A stretch of 50,753 bases of DNA from an uncultured Planctomycetales bacterium (GTDB lineage: Bacteria; Omnitrophota; Gorgyraeia; Gygaellales; JAHJCI01). Numbering within the stretch: position 1 is the first letter of the stretch; each line of letters starts with the position of its first letter. The position numbers and the translations under genes are program-made. Shown here in pieces: positions 17,866 to 36,080 of this stretch. The notes under the pieces are model-generated. The model had not been told where the DNA came from, did not search any database, and saw only the letters and a program-made list of their open reading frames with translations. Where the stretch lies: contig CAZQEY010000010.1 in assembly GCA_964592485.1 (NCBI GenBank), positions 1 to 50,753 on the forward strand, given 5' to 3'.

Positions 17866-17896
17866 TTGGCAAAAAGTCTGCCTGCCGGCAGGCAGG
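17866..17896 (-). terminator. Rho-independent terminator after the ychF-like gene (palindrome CTGCCTGCCGGCAGGCAG, then ACUUUUUGCC on the minus strand)
   Basis: GC-rich perfect palindrome followed by a U-run on the transcribed strand. Flanked by a direct repeat GGATGTCCCT x2. Confidence 0.6.
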
Positions 17897-17907
17897 GATG
17901 TCCCTAT

Positions 17908-18612
17908 TTATTTATTAAAGCGGAATTTGATTAAATCACCGTCCTGGACAATATAATCCTTACCCTCTATGCGCTGATGGTTATTTGCCCGCGCCTGATT
18001 TATGCCCCCGTCATTAGTCAAATCATTAAAGCTGATTACCTCGGCACGGATAAAGCCCTTTTGGATATCGGAATGGACTAAACCAGAGGCCTGCCAACAA
18101 CTCATCCCCTGTTTAATCGGCCAAGCACGGGCATCCTTCTCATTAGCAGTAAAAAATGAAATGTAGCCGAATAAGGTATAGGCTGGATGTAAAATCTTAT
18201 GCCTATCCTCCAAATCAGCCGGCTCAGCCAAGAAGACCGGCCGGAAAGTCAATAAGGAATATCCTGAGGCAATCCTATTTTCTTCCTCGGACAGTTGTAA
18301 CTCAAAGATAAAACCCTCCTTCTCTAATTGCTCCTTTAATTTCTTCAACAAACTTCTCTCATCATCCTCCTGGACATTAGTCAGCCTCTTCTCAATAAAT
18401 TCCATATCAGTAAGAATTAAATCAATGCGTTTTTCCTTCAGCGTGATTATGCCGTCGCATTCCCTAAGCCTCTGACGGTCAGTAATAATTTCTACCTCGA
18501 TATAGGTCTTCTTGGCGGAATTAGCCATCTGTTTTACTGTATCCAGACGCTTATCAATGATGTTTTCCTTGCCGGAAGAAAAATTATTACATTCAAAAAT
18601 GCCGATTTTCAT
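17908..18612 (-). CDS. YchF-like protein retaining only the C-terminal YchF/TGS region; G domain degenerate or deleted
   Basis: C-terminus aligns with the E. coli YchF C-terminus (KGFIRAEVISFNDL..., EGKDYIVQDGDLIKFRFN). P-loop position reads ECNNFSSGKEN. 234 aa versus ~363 aa. Confidence 0.7.
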   Translation of the reverse strand: MKIGIFECNNFSSGKENIIDKRLDTVKQMANSAKKTYIEVEIITDRQRLRECDGIITLKEKRIDLILTDMEFIEKRLTNVQEDDERSLLKKLKEQLEKEGFIFELQLSEEENRIASGYSLLTFRPVFLAEPADLEDRHKILHPAYTLFGYISFFTANEKDARAWPIKQGMSCWQASGLVHSDIQKGFIRAEVISFNDLTNDGGINQARANNHQRIEGKDYIVQDGDLIKFRFNK

Positions 18613-18669: not shown

Positions 18670-20619
18670 TTAGGTCTGTTCTGCTTTTTTTTGTGCCTGG
18701 TACCTGCTGATAATCTCATTGGCTATTTTGGCAGGAACCTGTTCATAGTGGGAAAATTTCATTGTGTAGCTACCGCGACCACCGGTAATTGAACGCAGGT
18801 CATTGGCGTAGGTAAATATCTGAGCAAGGGGAACCTGGGCTTTTACTACCTGGTTTTTTCCTTTTACCTCCATTCCCATTACTCGTCCGCGGCGGGAATT
18901 AAGGTCGCCGGAGATTTGGCCTAAATATTCCTCAGGAATGAATACCTCTACATCCATTATTGGCTCAAGAAGGACCGGGCCGGCCTCCAGCACCGCCTTT
19001 CTTAAAGCCATCGAGCCGGCAATCTGAAAAGCCATATCTGAAGAATCTACCTCGTGGTAAGAGCCGTCATAAAGCTTAACCTGTATATCAACTAACTGGC
19101 ATCCGGCTAAAACCCCTTCAGACATTGCCTGCCTTACTCCCTTTTCTACAGAGGGAATAAAGTTGCGCGGTATAGCTCCGCCGACAATCTTATCCACAAA
19201 CTCAAATTCCTTACCTCGCTCAAGAGGACTTACCTCAATCCAGCAGTCACCGTATTGACCACGGCCACCTGATTGACGCTTGTATTTACCCTGGACACTA
19301 GCGGTCTTGGTGATTGTTTCTTTATAGGCAACCTTGGGTGTGCCTAAATCAACCTGAACATTAAATCTTTTTTTTAACCGATTAATCATTACATCTAAAT
19401 GCTGGTCTCCCATCCCGGAAATAATCAGTTCCCTGGTCTGCTGGTCGCGCGATACCTTAAAGGTAAGATCCTCAGCCACGAGCTTAGCCAATGCCTGGGA
19501 AATCTTTTCCTCGTCCTGGCGCGAATGTGGCTTTACTGAAGCAGAGATCATTGTCTCGGGGAAATCTATGGATTTAAAGATTACCGGATGTTTCGCTTCA
19601 GCCAACGAGTCTTGTGTCTTGGTCTGTTTTAACTTCGGTATTGCCACTATATCTCCGCAAACAGCTTGCTCTACAGGCCTTTGCTCCTTTCCCTGAACTA
19701 TATAAATCTGCGTAAAACGCTCTGTTATTTTCTGAGTAGCATTATAGAAGCTGCTACCAGTTGAGAGTTTACCAGAAAAAACACGCAATAAACTTAATTG
19801 ACCGACATAAGGGTCAAAGATGCTCTTAAAGACAAAGGCAGAAAATGGCGCATCGGCACTGAACTTAATCTCCCCCTCAACCTCTAAAGGTGTCCTTTGC
19901 TCAGGCGAAGCCAAACAGTCCTTAATAGCCTTTAGCAACTCCTTGATGCCTGCGTCTTGAGCGGCCGAGCCTGAGATTATAGGAAAGATTTTTGCCTCAA
20001 CTACTGCCCGGCCCAAACCAGAAGCCACCTCCTGAGGGTTTAGTTTTCCTTCGGCAAGATATTTCTCCAGGAGCTTATCATCGGCCTCAGCGACTAATTC
20101 GATTAATTCCTCAGAATTCTGCTGGCCCAAAAGAACTGCCTTTTTGGACAGTGCTGATTTTATGTCCGCAACTGCTTTATCAACATCGGCCCCCTCTTTA
20201 TCGGTCTTATTGATAAAGATAATCCGCGGGAGTCTTAATTCTTCTAAAAGGGCCCAGGCTTTTTCTGTGCCCACTTCAACCCCAGCTGTTGCATCAACCA
20301 CAAGAATAGCATTATCAACTGCACGGATTCCCGAGACGACCTCACCAAAGAAATCGGCATAGCCAGGGGTATCGATTATCTGGATATTTATACCCTCATA
20401 ATCGCAATAAAGCAAACTGGAATTGATTGAGTGCCTCTTTTCAATCTCATCCCAGCTATAATCACTTACAGTATTGCCCTCCGTAATGCTGCCCTTGCGG
20501 CTAGTGGCACCGCAGGTAAAAAGCAAACACTCGGAAAGCAAGGTCTTTCCCGACTGGGCATGACCAAGGAGAATAATTGTTCGTTTATCCTGAACAGGCA
20601 TTTTAACCGTTTGTCCCAT
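18670..20619 (-). CDS. EF-G-like translational GTPase paralog; G3 motif is DTPGY (catalytic His replaced by Tyr)
   Basis: G1 GHAQSGKT, G3 DTPGYADF (canonical DTPGHVDF), G4 NKTD. EF-G domains II-V are recognisable. 649 aa. Confidence 0.85.
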   Translation of the reverse strand: MGQTVKMPVQDKRTIILLGHAQSGKTLLSECLLFTCGATSRKGSITEGNTVSDYSWDEIEKRHSINSSLLYCDYEGINIQIIDTPGYADFFGEVVSGIRAVDNAILVVDATAGVEVGTEKAWALLEELRLPRIIFINKTDKEGADVDKAVADIKSALSKKAVLLGQQNSEELIELVAEADDKLLEKYLAEGKLNPQEVASGLGRAVVEAKIFPIISGSAAQDAGIKELLKAIKDCLASPEQRTPLEVEGEIKFSADAPFSAFVFKSIFDPYVGQLSLLRVFSGKLSTGSSFYNATQKITERFTQIYIVQGKEQRPVEQAVCGDIVAIPKLKQTKTQDSLAEAKHPVIFKSIDFPETMISASVKPHSRQDEEKISQALAKLVAEDLTFKVSRDQQTRELIISGMGDQHLDVMINRLKKRFNVQVDLGTPKVAYKETITKTASVQGKYKRQSGGRGQYGDCWIEVSPLERGKEFEFVDKIVGGAIPRNFIPSVEKGVRQAMSEGVLAGCQLVDIQVKLYDGSYHEVDSSDMAFQIAGSMALRKAVLEAGPVLLEPIMDVEVFIPEEYLGQISGDLNSRRGRVMGMEVKGKNQVVKAQVPLAQIFTYANDLRSITGGRGSYTMKFSHYEQVPAKIANEIISRYQAQKKAEQT

Positions 20620-20817
20620 TAGAAATATTTATTCTGTCTTTTGGCAGAATGGTTTTTTTAAACAGCATTTATTCTGGGAACAAAATACTCTAGAGATAAA
20701 GGATAGATTATTATGGTATGAAATATTATACGAAGGAAGGTGGGGTGCGTCAAGAAAAATTCATCTCAAGCTTATATTATTTGTAACCAACCGTTGTAGT
20801 ATTTTTACAATTGATAA

Positions 20818-21840
20818 CTAAAATCTATATTTCACAACTGCGGAAGCTATCCAAAAGCAGGAAGTTATTCTATCGTCTACATCAGAAGTTACGCCGACAT
20901 AGGGGCCTGCGTAATAGGATTGGTGCTGGGTGCCGTCCGTATCAATATCCGTGAATTCGCCGCTTATTTGCAGTACCCAGTTAGGCAGGAATTGCCAATT
21001 AGCATCTACATTGACAATATAGGCATCTCCATCGCAGTCTCCCTCAGAAAGTTTATATCTTAAAATATGGTCGTCTCTATCTTCGGCATTAGCCGAAGGA
21101 CTATAGCCAAATCTCAAATTCAACTGAAATTTATCCCCGAATAAGACATTGGTATTGAAACCAAAATAGGGAATCTTGTATTCTACCTCATAATCAAGTG
21201 TATTGCCCGTAACATATGTGGTGTAATCGCCGGCATACGGACCATAACCGACCTGATTCGTATCGCTAATCTCGTATTCAAATTTTTGATACCTGTATCC
21301 TACCATCGGGCCGATACTTATATTCTCGGCAGGATAAAAACTAAACACATAGTTTATGTCAATTATATCAACATCCGCATCTGCTTCTGATTCCGAATAA
21401 ATATCCAACCCGGGGTGAGTGGTGCCGTAATAGTAAATGTCATAAGCATCATTCAACCAGTCAGAATCTTTCATTTCTCCTGCGTCATTAGTAATATCGG
21501 TAAACCACCCTAAAGTTAATCTGGCCCTGTCTTGCTTTTCATTATAGGGATTTTTATAAGCTAAGGCTGCCTCAACGCCTAATAAAAAATTATCTAAAGG
21601 AAACTCTAACTCGCTCTCTCCTTCATAAATGACAGCTTCAGTAAAATTTATATGGTAGGTTGTATCTCCTCTGATATACCCTGTCTGCAATCCCAAGGTA
21701 GCGCGCATATTCCCCATCCAGTCTAATTCTTCTTCGGTGAAGATATTTCGCAAATCTGCAAAAAGAGAACTCTCTTGAGCAAATAAAAGAGTAGGAAAAA
21801 TTAGAAACAAACCAAGAATACAGATTACTTTAGACCTCAT
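20818..21840 (-). CDS. Outer-membrane beta-barrel protein
   Basis: Signal peptide MRSKVICILGLFLIFPTLLFAQ. Rich in alternating Y/G/T/D. C-terminal ...VKYRF with a terminal Phe. Confidence 0.6.
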   Translation of the reverse strand: MRSKVICILGLFLIFPTLLFAQESSLFADLRNIFTEEELDWMGNMRATLGLQTGYIRGDTTYHINFTEAVIYEGESELEFPLDNFLLGVEAALAYKNPYNEKQDRARLTLGWFTDITNDAGEMKDSDWLNDAYDIYYYGTTHPGLDIYSESEADADVDIIDINYVFSFYPAENISIGPMVGYRYQKFEYEISDTNQVGYGPYAGDYTTYVTGNTLDYEVEYKIPYFGFNTNVLFGDKFQLNLRFGYSPSANAEDRDDHILRYKLSEGDCDGDAYIVNVDANWQFLPNWVLQISGEFTDIDTDGTQHQSYYAGPYVGVTSDVDDRITSCFWIASAVVKYRF

Positions 21841-21854
21841 TTTATTCTCTCTAC

Positions 21855-23036
21855 CTATTCTAAATATGTATAGATTTTGCCGCGGAAATTTCGCAGGACG
21901 TATTTGCCCTTTGCCTGAGACAGGAGGTAATTCGGCCCAACGGGAATCTTTCCCCCTCCACCCGGGCCATCAATCACATAGATAGGGACTGCGTATCCTG
22001 AGGTATGTCCGCGCAGTTTCTCAATAATATTTATCCCTGCGGCAACTGGTGTACGGAAGTGCTGGGTTCCTTTCACCGGGTCACACTGATAGATATAGTA
22101 GGGACGAACGCGTATCTTTAAGAGTTCGTGCATAAGTTTTTTCATAATAAAAGGCCGGTCATTTATCCCTTTTAGAAGTACAGTCTGACTTCCTAAAGGA
22201 AAACCATTATCAGTAAACATATCGCAGGCAATCCGGCAACGCTTGGTAATCTCTTTGGGATGGTTAAAATGAATGCTTATCCAGATTGGGCTATACTTCT
22301 TCAGCATCAAAATTAAGCCTTCGGTTATCCGCTGAGGCAGGGTTACTGGAAGGCGGGTGCCAATCCTTAAAAACTCCACATGAGAAATGCTACGGATCTT
22401 CTTGATTAATTCCTCTAAAACATTATCCTTAAGCATTAAAGGGTCCCCGCCGGAAATTAGCACATCGCGAATCTTACGATTAGCTTTTATGTATTCAATA
22501 GCCTCATTACAGTTATTATTAGCATTTGTTCTTTTATTCTCACCTACCAGCCTTCTTCTTGTGCAGTGACGACAATACATTGCGCACTGCTCAGTAGCCA
22601 GAAGAAGTACACGGTCAGGATAGCGGTGAACAAGATGAGGCGCAGGAGAATCACGGTCTTCTGCGCAAGGGTCGACCATCTCATGCGGACCAATCTGTGA
22701 CTCGTAGATAGTAGGAACGGACTGGCGCCTAATTGGACAGCGAGCATCTTCAGGGTCGATAAGGGTGAGCCAGTAAGGAGTAATTGCCATGCACATCCTG
22801 CCACGAGCCTTCTTTATCCCTTCTGTCTCTTCGGGGGTAAGTTTTATAATCTGACTTAGTTGTTCAATGGTTGTAATTCGATTCTTTGCCTGCCAATGCC
22901 AATCCTCCCAATCTAAGGGATTGACATCCTTAAACAATCCTATCTGCTGATAATCTAACTGCGCCCTTCTTCTTATTGAAACTACTGGCGCAGTAAGCAC
23001 ACTCCCCGGCATCTTTTGAGTCTGGACTTCCATCAT
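21855..23036 (-). CDS. kamA: Lysine 2,3-aminomutase family radical SAM enzyme (KamA/AblA-like; EpmB not excluded)
   Basis: CAMYCRHCTRRR cluster typical of the KamA family; 393 aa. Confidence 0.8.
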   Translation of the reverse strand: MMEVQTQKMPGSVLTAPVVSIRRRAQLDYQQIGLFKDVNPLDWEDWHWQAKNRITTIEQLSQIIKLTPEETEGIKKARGRMCMAITPYWLTLIDPEDARCPIRRQSVPTIYESQIGPHEMVDPCAEDRDSPAPHLVHRYPDRVLLLATEQCAMYCRHCTRRRLVGENKRTNANNNCNEAIEYIKANRKIRDVLISGGDPLMLKDNVLEELIKKIRSISHVEFLRIGTRLPVTLPQRITEGLILMLKKYSPIWISIHFNHPKEITKRCRIACDMFTDNGFPLGSQTVLLKGINDRPFIMKKLMHELLKIRVRPYYIYQCDPVKGTQHFRTPVAAGINIIEKLRGHTSGYAVPIYVIDGPGGGGKIPVGPNYLLSQAKGKYVLRNFRGKIYTYLE

Positions 23037-23119
23037 AGATATAGCCTGCTATTTTTAAAACACCTCACAGTAAATTATCCAACTTCTCAAGCTAAATGAA
23101 CTCTTGAGAAAATCACAAA

Positions 23120-24109
23120 TTACAGGTTATAACGCTTAAATGCGCTCTGTAATATCTTATCAAGCATCTGGGGATAACTGATGCCTAAAACCTTAGGAAT
23201 CAGCATAAATACATCCTCAGTAGCCAAACAAGGCAAAGGGTTAAGCTCTAAGACATAAGGGTTATCCTGTTCGTCCACGCGAAAATCCACCCTGCCAAAA
23301 TCAAGACAGTCAACTGCCTGGTAAGCACGAAGCGCTATCTGTTTAAGTTTATCCTCCAATTCTTTGCTGATTGGAGCAGGGCAAATGTATTCTAATGCGG
23401 GTGAGGTAATATGTGCAAAGGTATAAAATTTCTCTCCCAAATCCAACTGGCCTTCAATTTTTACCTGCACGGGAGGAAACGCCTCAGGGGCATCATTTCC
23501 CACAATTGCCACAGTAAATTCCTTCCCCTTGACAAACTCCTCTACTAATGCGGGCTGTCGATAGGTAGTGATTATATAATCGACCCTCTTAATTAAATCT
23601 CGGTGATTATGTATCCGCGCATTTTCATCAATACCCTTGGAAGAGCCTTCAAAGCGAGGCTTCACCATAAGGGGAAATTTAAAATGATTGGTATTAATTA
23701 AAGAATCTGTCCGCTTAACCTCAATAAATTTAGGCGTAGGAATCCCCTCAGCAAGAAATACCTTTTTAGCCATTAGTTTATCCAGTGTAAGCGCCTGAGT
23801 TAAGCCGTCTGAACCAACAAAAGGAATACCCTTCATCTCCAGAATAACCGGAACCTGTGATTCACGATTTCTCCCACTTAAGCCTTCTGAGATATTAAAG
23901 ACGATATCCACACCTAGATTCACCAGATTGTCAAGGAGTAAAGAGACATTGCCAATTCTTTTCACCCGATACCCCAGGGATTCGATTGCCTGGGTAATCA
24001 GGTCTATCGTAGCCGGGTGGTCAAACTCAGCATTAGCATCGTCTGGATCGTCTTCTTTTAACTGATAATCGGTCTTTAAATCGTAGGTTAATCCAATAGT
24101 CTTGCTCAT
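23120..24109 (-). CDS. D-alanine--D-alanine ligase-like ATP-grasp ligase
   Basis: ATP-grasp fold motifs: ...MVKPRFEGSSKGI..., ...ELNPLP.... Immediately downstream of kamA. Confidence 0.6.
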   Translation of the reverse strand: MSKTIGLTYDLKTDYQLKEDDPDDANAEFDHPATIDLITQAIESLGYRVKRIGNVSLLLDNLVNLGVDIVFNISEGLSGRNRESQVPVILEMKGIPFVGSDGLTQALTLDKLMAKKVFLAEGIPTPKFIEVKRTDSLINTNHFKFPLMVKPRFEGSSKGIDENARIHNHRDLIKRVDYIITTYRQPALVEEFVKGKEFTVAIVGNDAPEAFPPVQVKIEGQLDLGEKFYTFAHITSPALEYICPAPISKELEDKLKQIALRAYQAVDCLDFGRVDFRVDEQDNPYVLELNPLPCLATEDVFMLIPKVLGISYPQMLDKILQSAFKRYNL

Positions 24110-28627: not shown

Positions 28628-31044
28628 TTCTGCTGAAAAATCATCCTTTCCTTAATCTGAGTTGATATGCCCTCAATAAAGGTTTTAAATTTTAAATATT
28701 CCGAAAGCGCAACATATCTTTTTTTTATCTGGGTTCTCTGTTTAAAGCGAAGATGACCATCTTCAAAGTGGTATTCAACACTTAAATCTAACCAAGGATT
28801 GCTTTCCTGAAAATCAGCCGGTAAATACTTTAACTTAACCCCTCGCGGTAAAACCACATCCAACTCAGCCTCCCGAATACTTGGCATTCCTAAATCAATA
28901 GGATATCGCCGCGATTGTTTTGCAATCACTGAAGTATCCAAAAGCGCCAATTGAGGAAATATCCTTAGATTACCGGCCTTAGTCCAATATTCTCGACCAG
29001 AGAAAGAATAATTCAAGATTACATTCTTATTGAGGTCATCTAAATTCTGGATATCATATTTTATTAACCGGGCAGCGGTGGATACCCCTTGGATTGCCTG
29101 CTTGAGGCTTTCGGAGATTGCCTCTTCGGTAGAGTACTTAAGCCAGAGACGCTGACCCGCATCATATAACCCTGTGGTAGCAACCATCTTTTCTGCCTCG
29201 ATTGTTCCATCAGGACTAATCTCCATTTTAAGAATCTGCCTTAGACTATTATGCTGAGCAGAATAGACAGGCGTTGTTTCAATTTGATAACCAGTATCGG
29301 TAAGGATAAAAATCCTTCTTTGCTGGTCATCGGCCGGCAAATTTCCAAAAGAACAGGTTGAGCAGGTAGGGTCAAGAAAGACCAAATCCTCATCTAACTT
29401 GACTACGGCAATACAATGATTAAAATTAACCGAAGGGAAATCTTCTTCTAAGTCAAGATAATCATCCGTGCCGATTAATACCGGGTAGCTCTCAAGGCCA
29501 ATTTCGCGTAACATTGCAACCAGAAGTATCGCCTGGTCCTTGCAATCGCCATATTTATTAAAAAAGATATCAATTGCTTTATGCGGCTCATACCCCGCCT
29601 GACCATATTCTACGGCAACATAGCGGATATCCTCGGCGCTGAAGTTATAGATTGCTCGCGCCTTATCCAGAATTGTTTCCTTATCCTGGGTTAAATCCTT
29701 GACCTTCTGTTTTATTGCTTGATTTACCTGAATTTTATCTTTGGCTAAATTCCACCACCAGTCATAAATCTCCTGCCAGGAATCAAAGGTAGAAATAAGA
29801 ATAATCGGATTAATCTTTGAATTCGAAGGCATATTTGCCTCAGGAATGATTGCCGGGATATCCTTAAATTCCCAAAGATATTCCTTGTATTCTGAATATT
29901 CTTTTACCACCGGCTCTAACTCTGCCTGGAATTTATTGTAATCTGAATTAAAGATTTTGTAGTGCAGTGGTTTTTCTGCCGGAATAACAAACTTAAAGTT
30001 AGCCTGAATAACCGGCTCGAGTTCCTGCAAATGATAAGAAATAACAAGATCGTCTTCATTAATCAATTGATTGCGATAAATTTTGTATTTATATTCGATA
30101 ATACAACCATGGGTAATCTCAGGGAACGAGATTATCCGTGCCCTGGCATTGCTATAAAGGGGAAAATTTAAATATTTAGAAACATCGCGTATATGGCGGC
30201 TACCCACAGGAACAACCACACCATCCGGCAGAATAGTACGCGCATATTCTAACTCTACCTTTTCATAGGTAGAATCATAACTAATCACAATTTCAGAGAA
30301 ATCCTGTTTACCCCGTTCATTTAAAATCTTAATAAGGAGATGTTCGGAAAAGACAGCCGAATTTTGCAGACTGAGTTCGACCTCTTCATCACAAAACAAG
30401 ATTAACGCTCCGGCATTAGGGTATTTTTCCGGCAGAGGAGCAGCTTTAATTATCTCCTGCAGGCTGGGTGATAAATCCTCTAAACGTAAATTCTCCCCTA
30501 ATCGGGTAATTAACTGGATTCGGTTCTGGGCGCGAGTTCTAAATAGCCCCTCATTAATCTGGCGATAAATATCCAAGGCCTGGTCATAGAGATTGAGCTT
30601 TTCGCAAACCTCTCCGTGATAATACAGAGCTTCACTGTCCGGATTATCTATCTTCTTGAATGCATCCCTTGCCTCGGTAAAATTATTAGTCTTATATAAA
30701 GCAAGGGCACGGTATTTTTTTGCCTCGGGGAGAGTTGTCTCTGATAGGTATTGGCTGGCTAATTCATATTCGGCCTGCTGATAATAAAGCAGGCCCAATT
30801 CGAAATAAGCTTGGTCTAAATCCTTGCCTTGGGCAATCAAGTCCTCGTATTTAGCAATGGCACGTTGGTAATAAGCCCGTGATTGCTTAGTATAATCCCG
30901 CGCTTCATCAAGTTTGCTCTTTTGAGTACAACCAGTTGAAAAATTCAAAATACAAAAAGCAAATATTAAAATGATAGACTGGAATTCAAAATTCTTTAAA
31001 AGATTTTTGATTTTTGATTTTCTATTTATATTTATAATACGCAT
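28624..31044 (-). CDS. Secreted or lipoprotein with N-terminal TPR repeats, a DUF3857-like region and a transglutaminase-like cysteine protease core
   Basis: YGDCKDQAILLVAMLREIGL is a TGase-like Cys motif. Start placed at MRIININ (AAGGAG SD); the ORF-track start lies inside hypD. Signal peptide ILIFAFCILNFSTGC. Confidence 0.7.
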   Translation of the reverse strand: MRIININRKSKIKNLLKNFEFQSIILIFAFCILNFSTGCTQKSKLDEARDYTKQSRAYYQRAIAKYEDLIAQGKDLDQAYFELGLLYYQQAEYELASQYLSETTLPEAKKYRALALYKTNNFTEARDAFKKIDNPDSEALYYHGEVCEKLNLYDQALDIYRQINEGLFRTRAQNRIQLITRLGENLRLEDLSPSLQEIIKAAPLPEKYPNAGALILFCDEEVELSLQNSAVFSEHLLIKILNERGKQDFSEIVISYDSTYEKVELEYARTILPDGVVVPVGSRHIRDVSKYLNFPLYSNARARIISFPEITHGCIIEYKYKIYRNQLINEDDLVISYHLQELEPVIQANFKFVIPAEKPLHYKIFNSDYNKFQAELEPVVKEYSEYKEYLWEFKDIPAIIPEANMPSNSKINPIILISTFDSWQEIYDWWWNLAKDKIQVNQAIKQKVKDLTQDKETILDKARAIYNFSAEDIRYVAVEYGQAGYEPHKAIDIFFNKYGDCKDQAILLVAMLREIGLESYPVLIGTDDYLDLEEDFPSVNFNHCIAVVKLDEDLVFLDPTCSTCSFGNLPADDQQRRIFILTDTGYQIETTPVYSAQHNSLRQILKMEISPDGTIEAEKMVATTGLYDAGQRLWLKYSTEEAISESLKQAIQGVSTAARLIKYDIQNLDDLNKNVILNYSFSGREYWTKAGNLRIFPQLALLDTSVIAKQSRRYPIDLGMPSIREAELDVVLPRGVKLKYLPADFQESNPWLDLSVEYHFEDGHLRFKQRTQIKKRYVALSEYLKFKTFIEGISTQIKERMIFQQK

Positions 31045-32161
31045 TACAGGCTCCTTCGCTAGAAACCATGCAGGGACCATAAGGATTTGCAGGGGAACAA
31101 ATCTTGCGAAATAAGGAGCACTCGGGAGGCTGAATTATTCCCTTCAGCACTTCCTTGCAGCGGCATTTCTCAAGTTTTTTGTTTGGTATTTCATATTTTC
31201 CCGTCTTTACATTTCTTGCTATAGCGGGATTCCGCTTGAAACGGGAAATATTAGGAAACACTATTCTTTTGGTCTCGAAACTTGAGAATGCATCCTTTAA
31301 CTCCAATCCACTTTGAGGAATTTCACCGAGTCCCCGCCAGGTAGCATTATCAGTCTTAAAAACCTTGAATATTTCTGCCTTTGCCTTTAGATTTCCCTCC
31401 TTTTTTACCACCCGTATATACTGATTTTCCACGCACGGTTTGTTCTGAATAACTTGACGAAGCAGGAAATAAATCCCCTCCAAGATATCCAAGGGTTCAA
31501 ATCCAGCCACACAGCAGGCAATCTTGTATTTTTTAGGAATAAACTCATATGCCTGGCTGCCGATGATTGTTGAGACATGTCCGGGACAGAGAAATCCGTC
31601 AATCTTAACTTGTCGGTCAAAAACCAATGCCTCCATTGCTGGAGGGATAAGTTTTAAGGCAGAAAAAAAAGAGAGATTGTTTAATCTTTCTTTTTTAGCT
31701 GCCTGCAGCGTAAGAGCTAAGGTCGAGGCAGTAGTCTCAAAGCCTACCGCCAGAAAGATTATCAACTTTTTTGGATTTTTTCTTGCTATACTCAGACTAT
31801 CCCAAGCAGAATAAACAACACGGACATCGCTACCCTCGGCCCTTTTCCTCTCAAGACTCGTGTTTGTCCCTGGTACCCGTAACATATCTCCAAAACTTAA
31901 GATGATTATATCCTTAAACTCGCTTAATTGGATTGCTTTATCAATATAATCCTGGTCAGACACACAAACCGGACACCCGGGCCCGGCAATCAAGTGTAGA
32001 TTCTTGGGAATTAACCTGTCTAAGCCAAAGCGGTGAAAACACTGAGTATGGGTACCGCAAACCTCCATCAGACGAATTGTGGTCTTCGGTATAATCTCAA
32101 ATATTTTCTGAGAAATCCGCTTGATAAGCTCTTTGTTGCGGAACTCATCAATAAATTTCAT
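31022..32161 (-). CDS. hypD: Hydrogenase maturation protein HypD
   Basis: MKFIDEFR N-terminus, MEVCGTHT, GPGCPVCV. Start placed at the ATG; the ORF track uses a TTG. Confidence 0.9.
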   Translation of the reverse strand: MKFIDEFRNKELIKRISQKIFEIIPKTTIRLMEVCGTHTQCFHRFGLDRLIPKNLHLIAGPGCPVCVSDQDYIDKAIQLSEFKDIIILSFGDMLRVPGTNTSLERKRAEGSDVRVVYSAWDSLSIARKNPKKLIIFLAVGFETTASTLALTLQAAKKERLNNLSFFSALKLIPPAMEALVFDRQVKIDGFLCPGHVSTIIGSQAYEFIPKKYKIACCVAGFEPLDILEGIYFLLRQVIQNKPCVENQYIRVVKKEGNLKAKAEIFKVFKTDNATWRGLGEIPQSGLELKDAFSSFETKRIVFPNISRFKRNPAIARNVKTGKYEIPNKKLEKCRCKEVLKGIIQPPECSLFRKICSPANPYGPCMVSSEGACNAYYKYK

Positions 32162-32366
32162 CTTCCCCTTCAAGCAATTGCAATGTCTGACGAGCAGCCT
32201 CCGGATTAACTATCTCTATGGCAAAACCTGCATGAACAATAACATAATCGCCCGGCTTTACCAAAGGCACCATTTGAACATTTACCTGACGCCTTAGCCC
32301 GCCGGTCTTAACCCAGGCAAATTGACCTTCTATCCTAGTAACCCTCATCGGTATTCCTAAACACAC
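32148..32366 (-). CDS. hypC: Hydrogenase maturation chaperone HypC, GTG start giving (M)CLGIPMRV
   Basis: Obligatory Met-Cys N-terminus found only with a GTG start, which is preceded by GGAAG. 72 aa. Overlaps hypD. Confidence 0.75.
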   Translation of the reverse strand: MCLGIPMRVTRIEGQFAWVKTGGLRRQVNVQMVPLVKPGDYVIVHAGFAIEIVNPEAARQTLQLLEGEDEIY

Positions 32367-32603: not shown

Positions 32604-33794
32604 TTAATGGGTCCAAGAGGCAACCGCTGCCTGCCCTAGACTGATGCTTATATCCGAGCAAGGCAGCATCTTATGAGTTAAAATATGAAATCCCGCTTTT
32701 TCTAATAAACCCAAACTTAACTTAAGTAGAATCTTATTCTGGAATACTCCGCCGGTTAAAATAACAGTATTAATCCGGGTGCCGCCTCTTATTCTCAGGC
32801 AGGTCTTTCTAATCATATCGGCAACAGTCAGATGAAAACAAGCAGCAATCTCTTCCTTACTGCAGTCATTTTTCAAATCAGCAATAATCTCCCTAAGGGT
32901 CAAAACCGGATCGATGACAAAAACCTGCCCAATCTTTTTAATCGCAAACTGATAACTTCTCGGCTGAGATTTATAACCAGAAGCGAGCCTTTCTAAATTT
33001 ATCGCTGCCTCAGCCTCGAATCCAACCCGGTAAATCTCTAAGACCAGGCAAGCAATAGCATCAAAGAGCCGACCAATGCTTGAGGCGGGAGGTGAATTAA
33101 AATTCTGCCTCCACATCTTTTCTAGGATAATCCAATTTTTTTTATTTATCCGTTTGAGAAAATCCAAATCTAAATCTAAAAAATTATTTCCAAAAGCCAG
33201 ACAAAGCCAAGCCGAAGCTACTCTCCAAGGTTCATAAATCGCTTTCTTGCCTCCTAAGAGAGGGATATATCTTAAGTGGGCTGCCCGTTTGAAATCCCGA
33301 TAATCAGCAACTAAGAATTCTGCGCCCCAGAGTGTTGAATCACTTCCAAAACCAGTGCCATCAAAGGCAACACCAATAACCCTTTGATTGCTAAGTTTAT
33401 TCTCAAGCATACAAGAAGCAATGTGGGCATGGTGATGTTGAACAGGAATAAGTCTTGGCCCATCAGAAATTTTTGCTCTGCATTTTGCTAAAGCACTATT
33501 TCTAGCGGAATTTATATTTTTTACTTTTTGCAAGTCGAGGATATATTTCGTCGAGAAATATCCCGGATGTTTGTCATAGGCAATAATCCTGGGTGACAGA
33601 CCAAAGCGTTGGGGAATTAAACTTATTCTCCTTTGAAATTTTTTAAAATTATCCGGTATCTCTAAATCGTTGATTACTTCGTTGATAAAAGCAGATCTAC
33701 GGTAAGCAAAGCAAAGGCTATTCTTTATATCTGCTCCCACTGCCAGTATTGGCTTCTTAATTTTAAAGGGTAAATCTATTTCTGACCAAGACAC
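32604..33794 (-). CDS. hypF: HypF-like carbamoyltransferase, Kae1/YgjD-like C-terminal domain only. No acylphosphatase, Zn-finger or YrdC domains in this ORF.
   Basis: PILAVGADIKNSLCF and QHHHAHIASC match HypF C-domain motifs. GTG start. 396 aa versus ~750 aa for full HypF. Confidence 0.65.
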   Translation of the reverse strand: MSWSEIDLPFKIKKPILAVGADIKNSLCFAYRRSAFINEVINDLEIPDNFKKFQRRISLIPQRFGLSPRIIAYDKHPGYFSTKYILDLQKVKNINSARNSALAKCRAKISDGPRLIPVQHHHAHIASCMLENKLSNQRVIGVAFDGTGFGSDSTLWGAEFLVADYRDFKRAAHLRYIPLLGGKKAIYEPWRVASAWLCLAFGNNFLDLDLDFLKRINKKNWIILEKMWRQNFNSPPASSIGRLFDAIACLVLEIYRVGFEAEAAINLERLASGYKSQPRSYQFAIKKIGQVFVIDPVLTLREIIADLKNDCSKEEIAACFHLTVADMIRKTCLRIRGGTRINTVILTGGVFQNKILLKLSLGLLEKAGFHILTHKMLPCSDISISLGQAAVASWTH

Positions 33795-34690
33795 TTGTCT
33801 TCTCCTATTTCTAAATTTAATATATTGTCAATCCTAAAGGTTCTTTCCTGCCTTCTCAAATTACAAAACCCTACGAGGTAAACCCCTTTAGAGACATCAT
33901 ACTCTTTTTCTGTTGCCCTATAGTCTCTAATGGCGCCCCCTTTCTGAATTATTGCCTTAGGTATAACCTCCCGTTCGGTAAGCTTGGCGCCAGCTCCGGA
34001 GAGATACCTTATCTTAAGACTTACTCCTAAATCCAAAGCTCGTTGAATTTGGGCAATCTTAGCGCTATTTATATTATCTAACAATTGTGAGTTTAAACCA
34101 AAAAGGCTAACAAATTGCTCAAAATCAACGACTCCTTTCCCAATAAGGGTGGAATTCAGACGATTAAAAACCTCCGCAGCTAACTGGGCGTCAGAAAGCG
34201 CACGATGCTTCTGGAGACTGTCTATGCCGAGTGTCTTGGCTACAAATCCGAGCGAATAGCTCCCTAAACCGGGCAACATCCTCTTTGCCATAATCAAAAT
34301 ATCCACTATCTGTAATCGCTCAGGAAGCCGGCAGTTGATTAAGTTTGACTCTGAAGATAAAAAGGCAAAATCAAATGGGGCGTTATAAGCAGCGAGGCAG
34401 GATTCAGAGATAAAATCCAAGAATGAAGGCATTACCTCGGAAATATCAGGAGCATCTTTAAGCATCTCCGGAGTAATCTGATTGACTACGAACGCAGCGG
34501 GAGAAATTCTTCTTTCTCCCGGATTTACCAGAGACTGAAATACCTCTAATCTCTGCTTATGCTTGTGCTTGTGCTTGTGCCTTAATCTAACTGCAGCAAT
34601 CTCAACAATACGGTCACCCGATTCTGGAGTAAGACCAGTGGTTTCCAAATCAAAGACACTGAATTCTATCTCGTTGATATTTTTAAGCAT
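33776..34690 (-). CDS. DnaQ-like DEDDh 3'-5' exonuclease fused to a C-terminal WYL-like domain; contains an (HK)4 repeat
   Basis: Exo I FDLETTGL and Exo III H...D. C-terminal YLVGFCNLRRQERTFRIDNI is WYL-like. Start taken at MLKNINEI. Confidence 0.65.
   Translation of the reverse strand: MLKNINEIEFSVFDLETTGLTPESGDRIVEIAAVRLRHKHKHKHKQRLEVFQSLVNPGERRISPAAFVVNQITPEMLKDAPDISEVMPSFLDFISESCLAAYNAPFDFAFLSSESNLINCRLPERLQIVDILIMAKRMLPGLGSYSLGFVAKTLGIDSLQKHRALSDAQLAAEVFNRLNSTLIGKGVVDFEQFVSLFGLNSQLLDNINSAKIAQIQRALDLGVSLKIRYLSGAGAKLTEREVIPKAIIQKGGAIRDYRATEKEYDVSKGVYLVGFCNLRRQERTFRIDNILNLEIGEDKCLGQK
34555..34578. repeat. Hexanucleotide microsatellite (GCTTGT)4 encoding HKHKHKHK inside the exonuclease-WYL gene
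   Basis: gcttatgcttgtgcttgtgcttgt. Confidence 0.8.
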
Positions 34691-34808
34691 AGGCACAATT
34701 TTGTCTCTTAATAATATAATCCAGATAATTACATGTAGAATTGGGAGAAATTTACCCCATTAGAAAGAAAGCATAATTCCAGAGATAGATGCAACTTTCT
34801 AACGGCGT

Positions 34809-35914: not shown

Positions 35915-35999
35915 TGGTGCGCGGGAGGAGATTTGAACTCCTACGGGTTGCCCCACTACCCCCTCAAAGTAGCGTGTCTGCCAGTTCCACCACCCGCGC
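35915..35999 (-). tRNA. tRNA-Leu (anticodon GAG), class II with a long variable arm, CCA encoded
   Basis: Hand-folded. 7 bp acceptor GCGCGGG/CCCGCGC. Anticodon loop UUGAGGG with U33. T-loop TTCAAAT. D-arm GGAACUGGCAGAC is Leu-like. Confidence 0.8.
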
Positions 36000-36008
36000 A
36001 AATTATCA

Positions 36009-36080
36009 CTGCCCCGTCTGGACTCGAACCAGAATACCAAGATCCAGAGTCTTGTGTCCTACCGATTAGACGACAGGGCA
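36009..36080 (-). tRNA. tRNA-Gln (anticodon CUG), U1-A72, G73 discriminator, CCA not encoded
   Basis: Hand-folded. Acceptor UGCCCUG/CGGGGCA. U8. Anticodon loop CUCUGGA. T-arm UCUGG-UUCGAGU-CCAGA. Confidence 0.7.

Follow-up and report, generated by a model that had tools for sequence, protein, structure and literature searches.

The contig CAZQEY010000010.1 encodes a protein whose public annotation is plain 'elongation factor G' (EF-G), and which has a tyrosine where the catalytic histidine of EF-G is expected. Is this the housekeeping factor of its organism or something else, and what could such a protein still do? The window analysed here is the whole 50.7-kb contig. An 'elongation factor G' without the catalytic His is startling in isolation, yet the protein proves to belong to the Omnitrophota branch of a large EF-G2 radiation, corresponding to the EFG II subfamily defined by Margus, Remm & Tenson in 2011 (PMC3150367). 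It is called the window EF-G2 below.

The gene is on the minus strand. From the first ATG, the open reading frame (ORF) occupies 18670..20619 and encodes 649 residues. The second Met (MPVQDKR...) is the start in homologs and in the public gene call (P0001, 643 residues), and it is likely that the coding sequence begins there. The ORF contains the five Pfam domains GTP_EFTU, EF-G_D2, EFG_III, EFG_IV and EFG_C, which is the complete EF-G architecture, and the G1 motif GHAQSGKT and G3 motif DTPGYADF are present as initially annotated. The following features are located in the gene.

18670..20601, minus strand: likely coding sequence of EF-G2 (EFG II subfamily), 643 residues from the conserved start at M7
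20542..20565, minus strand: G1 / P-loop GHAQSGKT, then L-L, with Gly16 and Leu25 (1WDT numbering) against canonical AHIDAGKT-T
20422..20448, minus strand: switch I / G2 region EIEKRHSIN; the translational GTPase motif RGITI is lost, and Ser58-Ile59 is invariant across EF-G2 orthologs
20350..20373, minus strand: G3 / switch II DTPGYADF, with the Tyr81 codon (20359..20361) at the catalytic His position
20200..20211, minus strand: G4 NKTD, guanine specificity; Lys132 and Asp134 invariant and Asn131 at least 90% conserved in a 77-sequence alignment
19987..20139, minus strand: reduced G' subdomain, in which helices including an acidic stretch are left and about 44 residues are deleted
19963..19971, minus strand: G5 GSA
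19246..19275, minus strand: domain IV loop I QSGGRGQYGD, canonical-like and nearly invariant in orthologs, with the EFG II-typical, Lys/Arg-rich KYKR before it
19036..19068, minus strand: domain IV loop II DGSYHEVDSSD, with the conserved tip His516

The position of the tyrosine was checked by a phmmer alignment to Thermus thermophilus EF-G, in which the query 'iidtpgyadf' is aligned to 'IIDTPGHVDF', so that Tyr indeed stands at the catalytic His. The 120 closest homologs are 67–85% identical to the window EF-G2 and mostly 640–652 residues long, and every taxon-specifically named protein among them is from Candidatus Omnitrophota or Omnitrophica. In these 120 the catalytic position is Tyr in 91 (76%), Phe in 29 (24%) and His in none. 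Residues G13, G18-K19-T20, D77-x-P79-G80, K132, D134 and G211 are invariant in EF-G2 orthologs and Leu22 is conserved at 97%. Among 77 orthologs, neither the two domain IV loops nor the nucleotide-binding residues vary. The presence of Tyr or Phe in all 120 closest homologs, together with the invariant nucleotide-binding residues, implies that Tyr81 is not there by chance, and the interchange of Tyr and Phe among orthologs implies that its hydroxyl is dispensable.

An exhaustive HMMER search was also run against 1.84 billion 50%-identity cluster representatives. Only six of the 150 closest representatives have His at the catalytic position, and four of these six are plainly canonical (AHIDAGKT/RGITI/DTPGH). 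The remainder have Tyr (75), Phe (29), or one of Asp, Ser, Ala, Leu, Asn, Thr, Gly and Glu. The initial annotation had implied that loss of this His is a rarity. In fact it is the rule in a named subclass, EFG II / EF-G2, for which the substitution is known.

Membership in this subclass can be examined position by position. According to the original survey (PMC3150367), EFG II proteins have a G1 of the form GhxxxGKT with Gly16 and Leu25 (1WDT numbering); they have lost RGITI, leaving a single conserved Ser, and keep G3 only as DxPG; their domain II has Gly333 and Lys352, and a Lys-rich stretch precedes loop I of domain IV. In that survey, genomes with EFG II always hold another EF-G. The 1WDT sequence was checked against the PDB, and the signature positions were then mapped on it. 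The window EF-G2 has G16, L25, L264, G333, K352 and K471, and canonical EF-Gs have A, T, A and G at the type I sites 16, 25, 333 and 352. Position 16 is Gly in the window EF-G2 and in 12 of 12 Omnitrophota orthologs, and Ala in five of five canonical sequences. Position 471/472 is K/R, Lys being expected at this type II site. At position 291 the window EF-G2 has Ser, where EF-G2-like representatives mostly have Thr and canonical EF-G has Val or Ile. The relaxed G2 is represented by EKRHSIN, whose Ser58-Ile59 does not vary in the 120 homologs, and the DxPG-only G3 by DTPGY.

The founding structure of EFG II is that of T. thermophilus EF-G-2 (1WDT/2DY1), which reads GHAGSGKTTL and DAPGYGDF and has Tyr at the same position. 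It shares with the window EF-G2 the five domains, a Gly-His-x-x-x-GKT-x-Leu G1, the loss of RGITI with a conserved Ser, DxPG, Gly333, Lys352, Lys471, a conserved domain IV, and coexistence with a canonical EF-G. When the PDB is searched with the G domain only, 1WDT is the best match (113 bits), and 9K0Z and 7UVP, the EF-G2s of Mycobacterium smegmatis and Bacteroides thetaiotaomicron, are also above every canonical bacterial EF-G.

The complete protein scores 563 bits to T. thermophilus canonical EF-G as against 451 to 1WDT. Its domains II–V, initially described as EF-G-like, are unusually near to canonical EF-G (474 bits over 470 residues). Canonical EF-G (fusA; TIGR00484) has the same fold and domain order, and its domain IV loops and domains III–V are highly similar, but the window protein is without AHIDAGKT, RGITI, DTPGH and the str-operon context. 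An AlphaFold model, with a predicted local distance difference test (pLDDT) value of 79.6, adopts the EF-G fold and has its best template modelling score (TM-score), 0.74, to 1WDT; the whole-protein Foldseek ranking is driven by inter-domain conformation and does not separate EF-G subfamilies.

Neighbour-joining trees of 161 and 170 sequences both split the canonical clade from a group holding the window EF-G2 and 1WDT, with 100/100 bootstraps; this is a distance method, and the trees leave out spdEFG and Tet outgroups. The larger tree sets 13 canonical EF-Gs (including E. coli, Dictyoglomus and five labelled Omnitrophota) against all EF-G2-like sequences. The Omnitrophota EF-G2 clade itself has 98/100 bootstrap support.

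The NCBIfam models agree with this placement. The top model is NF009381 (PRK12740.1-5, an 'elongation factor G' subfamily), with 851 bits against a cut-off of 583, and the protein is below the cut-off of canonical TIGR00484 (644.8 against 659.4), on which canonical Omnitrophota EF-Gs reach 966–1023. 1WDT shows the same pattern, with NF009381 best (809.6) and 489.7 on TIGR00484. The window EF-G2 does not reach the cut-offs of NF009377, 'EF-G-like protein EF-G2' (591.7 against 890), or NF058620, 'EFG2_Bacteroid' (532.5 against 1000). Since 1WDT itself misses the NF009377 cut-off (533), these two models are narrower than the EF-G2 subfamily. RF3, BipA and LepA membership was ruled out by the NCBIfam scores, and a Tet ribosomal protection protein by NF012153 tet_protect (334.6 against a cut-off of 775). 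Membership in the spdEFG2 / RRF2mt group was rejected because RRF2mt keeps AHIDAGKT, RGITI and DTPGH, unlike the window EF-G2. By its sequence, the window EF-G2 therefore belongs to an Omnitrophota ortholog group of EFG II / EF-G2, an ancient EF-G paralog. The class, including the change of His to Tyr, has already been described, and the Omnitrophota clade with a truncated G' is the new addition.

Is it the only EF-G of its organism? In the window it is surrounded by genes for a KamA-family radical SAM protein and an omptin/Pom-like protein, by a YchF remnant and by purH, with no ribosomal genes among them, and neither the 50.7-kb window nor 1.3 Mb of related loci yielded a canonical fusA. When a canonical-type representative (P0221) was used as the query, at least 120 proteins of about 685–750 residues (most 690–710) were retrieved. 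The 120 listed all have AHIDAGKT, RGITI and DTPGH[VI]DF, and all but one of the matches with taxon-specific names are from Omnitrophota. Three canonical Omnitrophota fusA genes were examined, and all are located next to rpsL-rpsG and tuf, in rpoB/C-rpsL-rpsG-fusA-tuf(-S10...) operons. Operons of the order S12-S7-EF-G-EF-Tu-S10-L3 are likewise reported on complete Omnitrophota genomes (preprint 10.64898/2026.06.07.730766).

Both genes are found on the complete chromosome CP070807.1, the canonical fusA (P0477, L086) at about 1.75 Mb and an EF-G2 ortholog (L061) at about 0.70–0.72 Mb. This ortholog has 666 residues and carries the motifs GHAQSGKTSL and DTPGYFDF; it shares 57% identity with the window EF-G2 and only 36% with P0477. 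Given this coexistence, the absence of a str operon around the gene and its grouping with T. thermophilus EF-G-2, the window EF-G2 is a paralog kept alongside a canonical str-operon fusA; that it is not the housekeeping fusA agrees with the initial annotation.

Two other apparent cases of co-occurrence were discarded. EF-G2 P0100 and canonical P0503, both from 13,598-bp contigs, are not on one contig, that of P0503 being an rpoC-S12-S7-EF-G-EF-Tu-S10 operon. P0458 was considered as part of the same metagenome-assembled genome (MAG) as locus L038, but the whole-genome shotgun prefixes differ (PCRL against PCRK) and it was not used. It is worth adding that on CP070807.1 (L086 8227..8689) the canonical fusA is followed by a 154-residue GTP_EFTU fragment instead of a full tuf, with unrelated genes after it. 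This may reflect an interruption or rearrangement of the str operon, which fits the report of ribosomal and elongation factor genes within hypervariable regions of Omnitrophota genomes (10.64898/2026.06.07.730766).

The truncation of the G' subdomain is a trait particular to the Omnitrophota EF-G2 clade. The spacing from G4 to G5 is 77 residues in the window EF-G2, as against 118–121 in most EF-G2-like and canonical sequences, and in the alignment to T. thermophilus EF-G the query passes from 164 to 166 while the target passes from 164 to 210. The deletion of about 44 residues corresponds to approximately 158–201 of 1WDT and 166–213 of E. coli EF-G. In the model of the window EF-G2 the G' β part is absent, and three helices with an acidic stretch are left. 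The protein is shorter because these residues are missing; the initial annotation was right about its shortness, but the probable length is 643 residues, from the conserved start, instead of 649. The window EF-G2 differs from 1WDT in this deletion and in its linkage to a gene for a small YchF-like protein (mini-YchF), described below. The Omnitrophota clade therefore adds to the subfamily a compact EF-G2, in which a truncated G' is combined with near-canonical domains II–V.

All three EF-G2s with solved structures are without the catalytic His (Tyr in 1WDT and 9K0Z, Ser in 7UVP). M. smegmatis EF-G2 (9K0Z/9K10) has the same DTPGYADF, with Tyr for the catalytic His, and no RGITI. Unlike the window EF-G2, it has lost the P-loop His (GPSGGGKTTL) and the Asn of NKxD, is 709 residues long with a full G', and is far more diverged; it is reported to be a stress factor, and neither a translocase nor a recycling factor. 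B. thetaiotaomicron EF-G2 (fusA2; 7UVP/8DMF) resembles the window EF-G2 as a ribosome-binding EF-G paralog without the catalytic His, but it has Ser at this position (DCPGSDDF), GSSGSGKTTL in the P-loop, NQLD as G4, and 718 residues with a full G'. Papers citing its description report that it needs no GTP hydrolysis for translocation and that carbon starvation induces it.

On the basis of these comparisons, we hypothesise that the window EF-G2 is an alternative translocase with slow or absent ribosome-triggered GTP hydrolysis, and give this proposal an even chance of being correct. Guanine nucleotide would still be bound, because the P-loop GxxxxGKT, DxPG, NKxD and GSA are strictly conserved. 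The protein would dock at the ribosomal factor-binding site and put its canonical domain IV tip into the decoding centre; the invariant domain IV loops and canonical-like domains II–V point to a decoding-centre function, that is, translocation. The canonical hydrolysis trigger would be dismantled, by the change of His to Tyr or Phe, the loss of RGITI, the replacement of the P-loop Ile-Asp by Ala-Gln, and the deletion of the G' β part. The Ile-Asp pair is described as touching the sarcin-ricin loop. The G' subdomain contacts L7/L12. With these elements lost, ribosome-stimulated hydrolysis should be slow or absent.

Translocation would then proceed slowly and spare GTP, in line with reports on B. 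thetaiotaomicron EF-G2, which is adopted here by analogy as the functional model, and this could be useful in the energy-limited, ultra-small cells of Omnitrophota. The gene would probably be co-transcribed with that of the mini-YchF, an apparently catalytically dead relative of another ribosome-binding protein. Besides the B. thetaiotaomicron protein, published work on the catalytic residue supports impaired hydrolysis with translocation retained: H88Y abolishes the GTPase of M. smegmatis EF-G1, the ribosome-dependent GTPase of M. smegmatis EF-G2 (with Tyr98) is minimal, and the H92A form of E. coli EF-G continues to translocate over multiple turnovers, although its release is slowed to about 20 s. 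Loss of GTPase activity, as suggested in the initial annotation, is plausible for a protein of this sequence, whereas the hibernation or rescue role suggested there is speculation. Natural EF-Gs without the His bear on the debate over the contribution of GTP hydrolysis to translocation.

Several points weigh against a slow or non-hydrolysing translocase. T. thermophilus EF-G-2 has Tyr and is reported to have GTPase activity, ribosome-dependent as well as intrinsic, and to be active in translocation; as it also has the most similar P-loop and is the best G-domain match in the PDB, GTP might be hydrolysed in some other way. The DTPGYADF of M. smegmatis EF-G2 is identical, and that protein reportedly does not translocate. 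The mechanism proposed for the Omnitrophota clade draws on sequence and analogy, and canonical fusA was seen in related Omnitrophota, the window's own MAG being covered by this one contig. The promoter and terminator at this locus, given below, are putative and are consensus matches only.

The first of these points can be taken further. The window EF-G2 may belong to the same family and yet be fully GTPase-competent, hydrolysing GTP without His on or off the ribosome and acting as a regular alternative translocase like T. thermophilus EF-G-2. We regard this as unlikely, though well worth considering. 1WDT combines Tyr at the same position with a near-identical P-loop, GTPase and poly(Phe) activities are reported for this protein, and the P-loop His14 is kept here, where the GTPase-poor EF-G2s of M. 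smegmatis and B. thetaiotaomicron have Pro and Ser. It is difficult to reconcile with the Phe found in a quarter of orthologs, which is incapable of polar catalysis, with the additional loss of the G' β part in the Omnitrophota clade, and with the finding that H88Y alone kills the GTPase in a canonical background.

Alternatively, the protein could be a stress-specific regulator that, like M. smegmatis EF-G2, binds ribosomes but does not translocate. Seated in the factor site of non-rotated ribosomes, it would either dampen translation or protect it. The identical G3 favours this, as do the minimal ribosome-dependent GTPase, missing recycling activity and regulatory stress role of the M. smegmatis protein, and the linkage to a dead YchF, YchF being a stress-related ribosome binder. 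We nevertheless consider it improbable: domains II–V are much nearer to canonical EF-G than are those of M. smegmatis EF-G2, and invariant canonical loops at the tip of domain IV are hard to explain without a function in the decoding centre.

It is very improbable that the protein is specialised for recycling only (spdEFG2 / RRF2mt-like) or that it protects ribosomes in the manner of the Tet proteins. RRF2mt is the second-best G-domain match in the PDB and the Tet models give significant E-values, but RRF2mt retains the three canonical motifs, the tet_protect score is far under its cut-off, and the EFG II signature positions are satisfied. That the window EF-G2 is the sole housekeeping EF-G, so that its organism translates without the catalytic His, can be dismissed almost outright: the lack of a second EF-G gene in the window and the plain public name would fit, but Omnitrophota-labelled canonical fusA is abundant in rpoBC-rpsL-rpsG-fusA-tuf operons, both genes are present on CP070807.1, the preprint places S12-S7-EF-G-EF-Tu-S10 operons on complete Omnitrophota chromosomes, and EFG II was always accompanied by another EF-G in the published survey (PMC3150367).

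The proposal of an alternative translocase with little or no triggered hydrolysis has a further element, the gene that follows EF-G2.

17908..18612, minus strand: mini-YchF, 234 residues, co-oriented with and downstream of EF-G2, after a 57-nt spacer
20725..20753, minus strand: promoter-like TTGACG-17-TATAAT (11/12), upstream of EF-G2; a consensus match only
17878..17895, minus strand: terminator-like GC hairpin and T-run, directly after the mini-YchF stop; a consensus match only

The sequence match of mini-YchF is limited to the C-terminal part of YchF, but its confident structural model, of pLDDT 92.9, can be superposed on complete YchF structures (TMq 0.72–0.79). As read from the sequence, the P-loop is degenerate (..SSGKE..) and lacks its Ser/Thr, and there is no G2/G3 segment. 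The protein is thus without NTPase motifs and apparently catalytically dead. Its 120 best homologs are nearly all 234 residues long and from Omnitrophota.

The pair is present in all 59 of the related loci that share at least 58% identity and extend far enough downstream, among them that of Ca. Velamenicoccus archaeovorus LiM, always on the same strand and with a gap of 6–244 nt. It is mostly missing in more distant Omnitrophota and in other phyla. No terminator-like site was found in the 57-nt spacer, and the two genes are probably co-transcribed as a bicistronic unit. A strictly linked, apparently dead YchF partner makes a candidate functional pair with EF-G2. A literature search for a DUF933/EF-G2 pairing found nothing, and the supplements of the Velamenicoccus enrichment paper contain no expression data for EF-G or YchF.

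It can be suggested, tentatively and with considerable doubt, that EF-G2 and mini-YchF form a two-gene module in most Omnitrophota, and that the two proteins work jointly at the ribosome, where mini-YchF might, for instance, stabilise a non-hydrolysing EF-G2 or release it. Ultra-small, energy-limited cells would then possess a means of hydrolysis-independent elongation or of ribosome preservation. If true, such a mode would be new for any EF-G2.

Two further genes lie upstream of EF-G2.

20818..21840, minus strand: omptin / Protochlamydia-Pom-like outer-membrane protein gene, between kamA and EF-G2
21855..24109, minus strand: KamA-family radical SAM gene

The product of the KamA-like gene is near to lysine 2,3-aminomutase AblA, scoring 522.4 bits where the cut-off is 525.4, and it is not an EpmB. 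Alongside the gene there are one or two ATP-grasp genes of the D-Ala-D-Ala-ligase-like kind. The order kamA - EF-G2 - mini-YchF - purH is conserved across Omnitrophota (L001, L003 and most related loci), without a known functional link between the genes. In L001, L003 and L006, kamA directly adjoins EF-G2, and L008 has a gap of similar size to the omptin-like insert. The MAGs of loci L006, L009, L018, L035 and L046 contain the typical Omnitrophota EF-G2 - mini-YchF - purH locus in records labelled 'uncultured Planctomycetales bacterium' or 'Deltaproteobacteria bacterium', which are probably taxonomic mislabels.

The leader of approximately 100 nt between the promoter-like site and the EF-G2 start contains a 10-bp hairpin (ATTCTGCC...GGCAGAAT-like) at 20629..20652, which scores as a terminator on the opposite strand. 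An Rfam scan near EF-G2 gave no known leader or riboswitch, and the hairpin matches no family.

Elsewhere in the window, a HypF-like ORF of 396 residues (32604..33794, minus strand) has the Kae1-like C-terminal domains only; for acylphosphatase, zinc-finger and YrdC domains Pfam gave no match. At its start it overlaps with an RNase T / WYL-domain ORF (33776..34696, minus strand), and hypD is downstream (31022..32173). Two adjacent tRNA genes (Rfam RF00005, 46 and 58 bits) are located at 35918..36080 on the minus strand, upstream of gltX.

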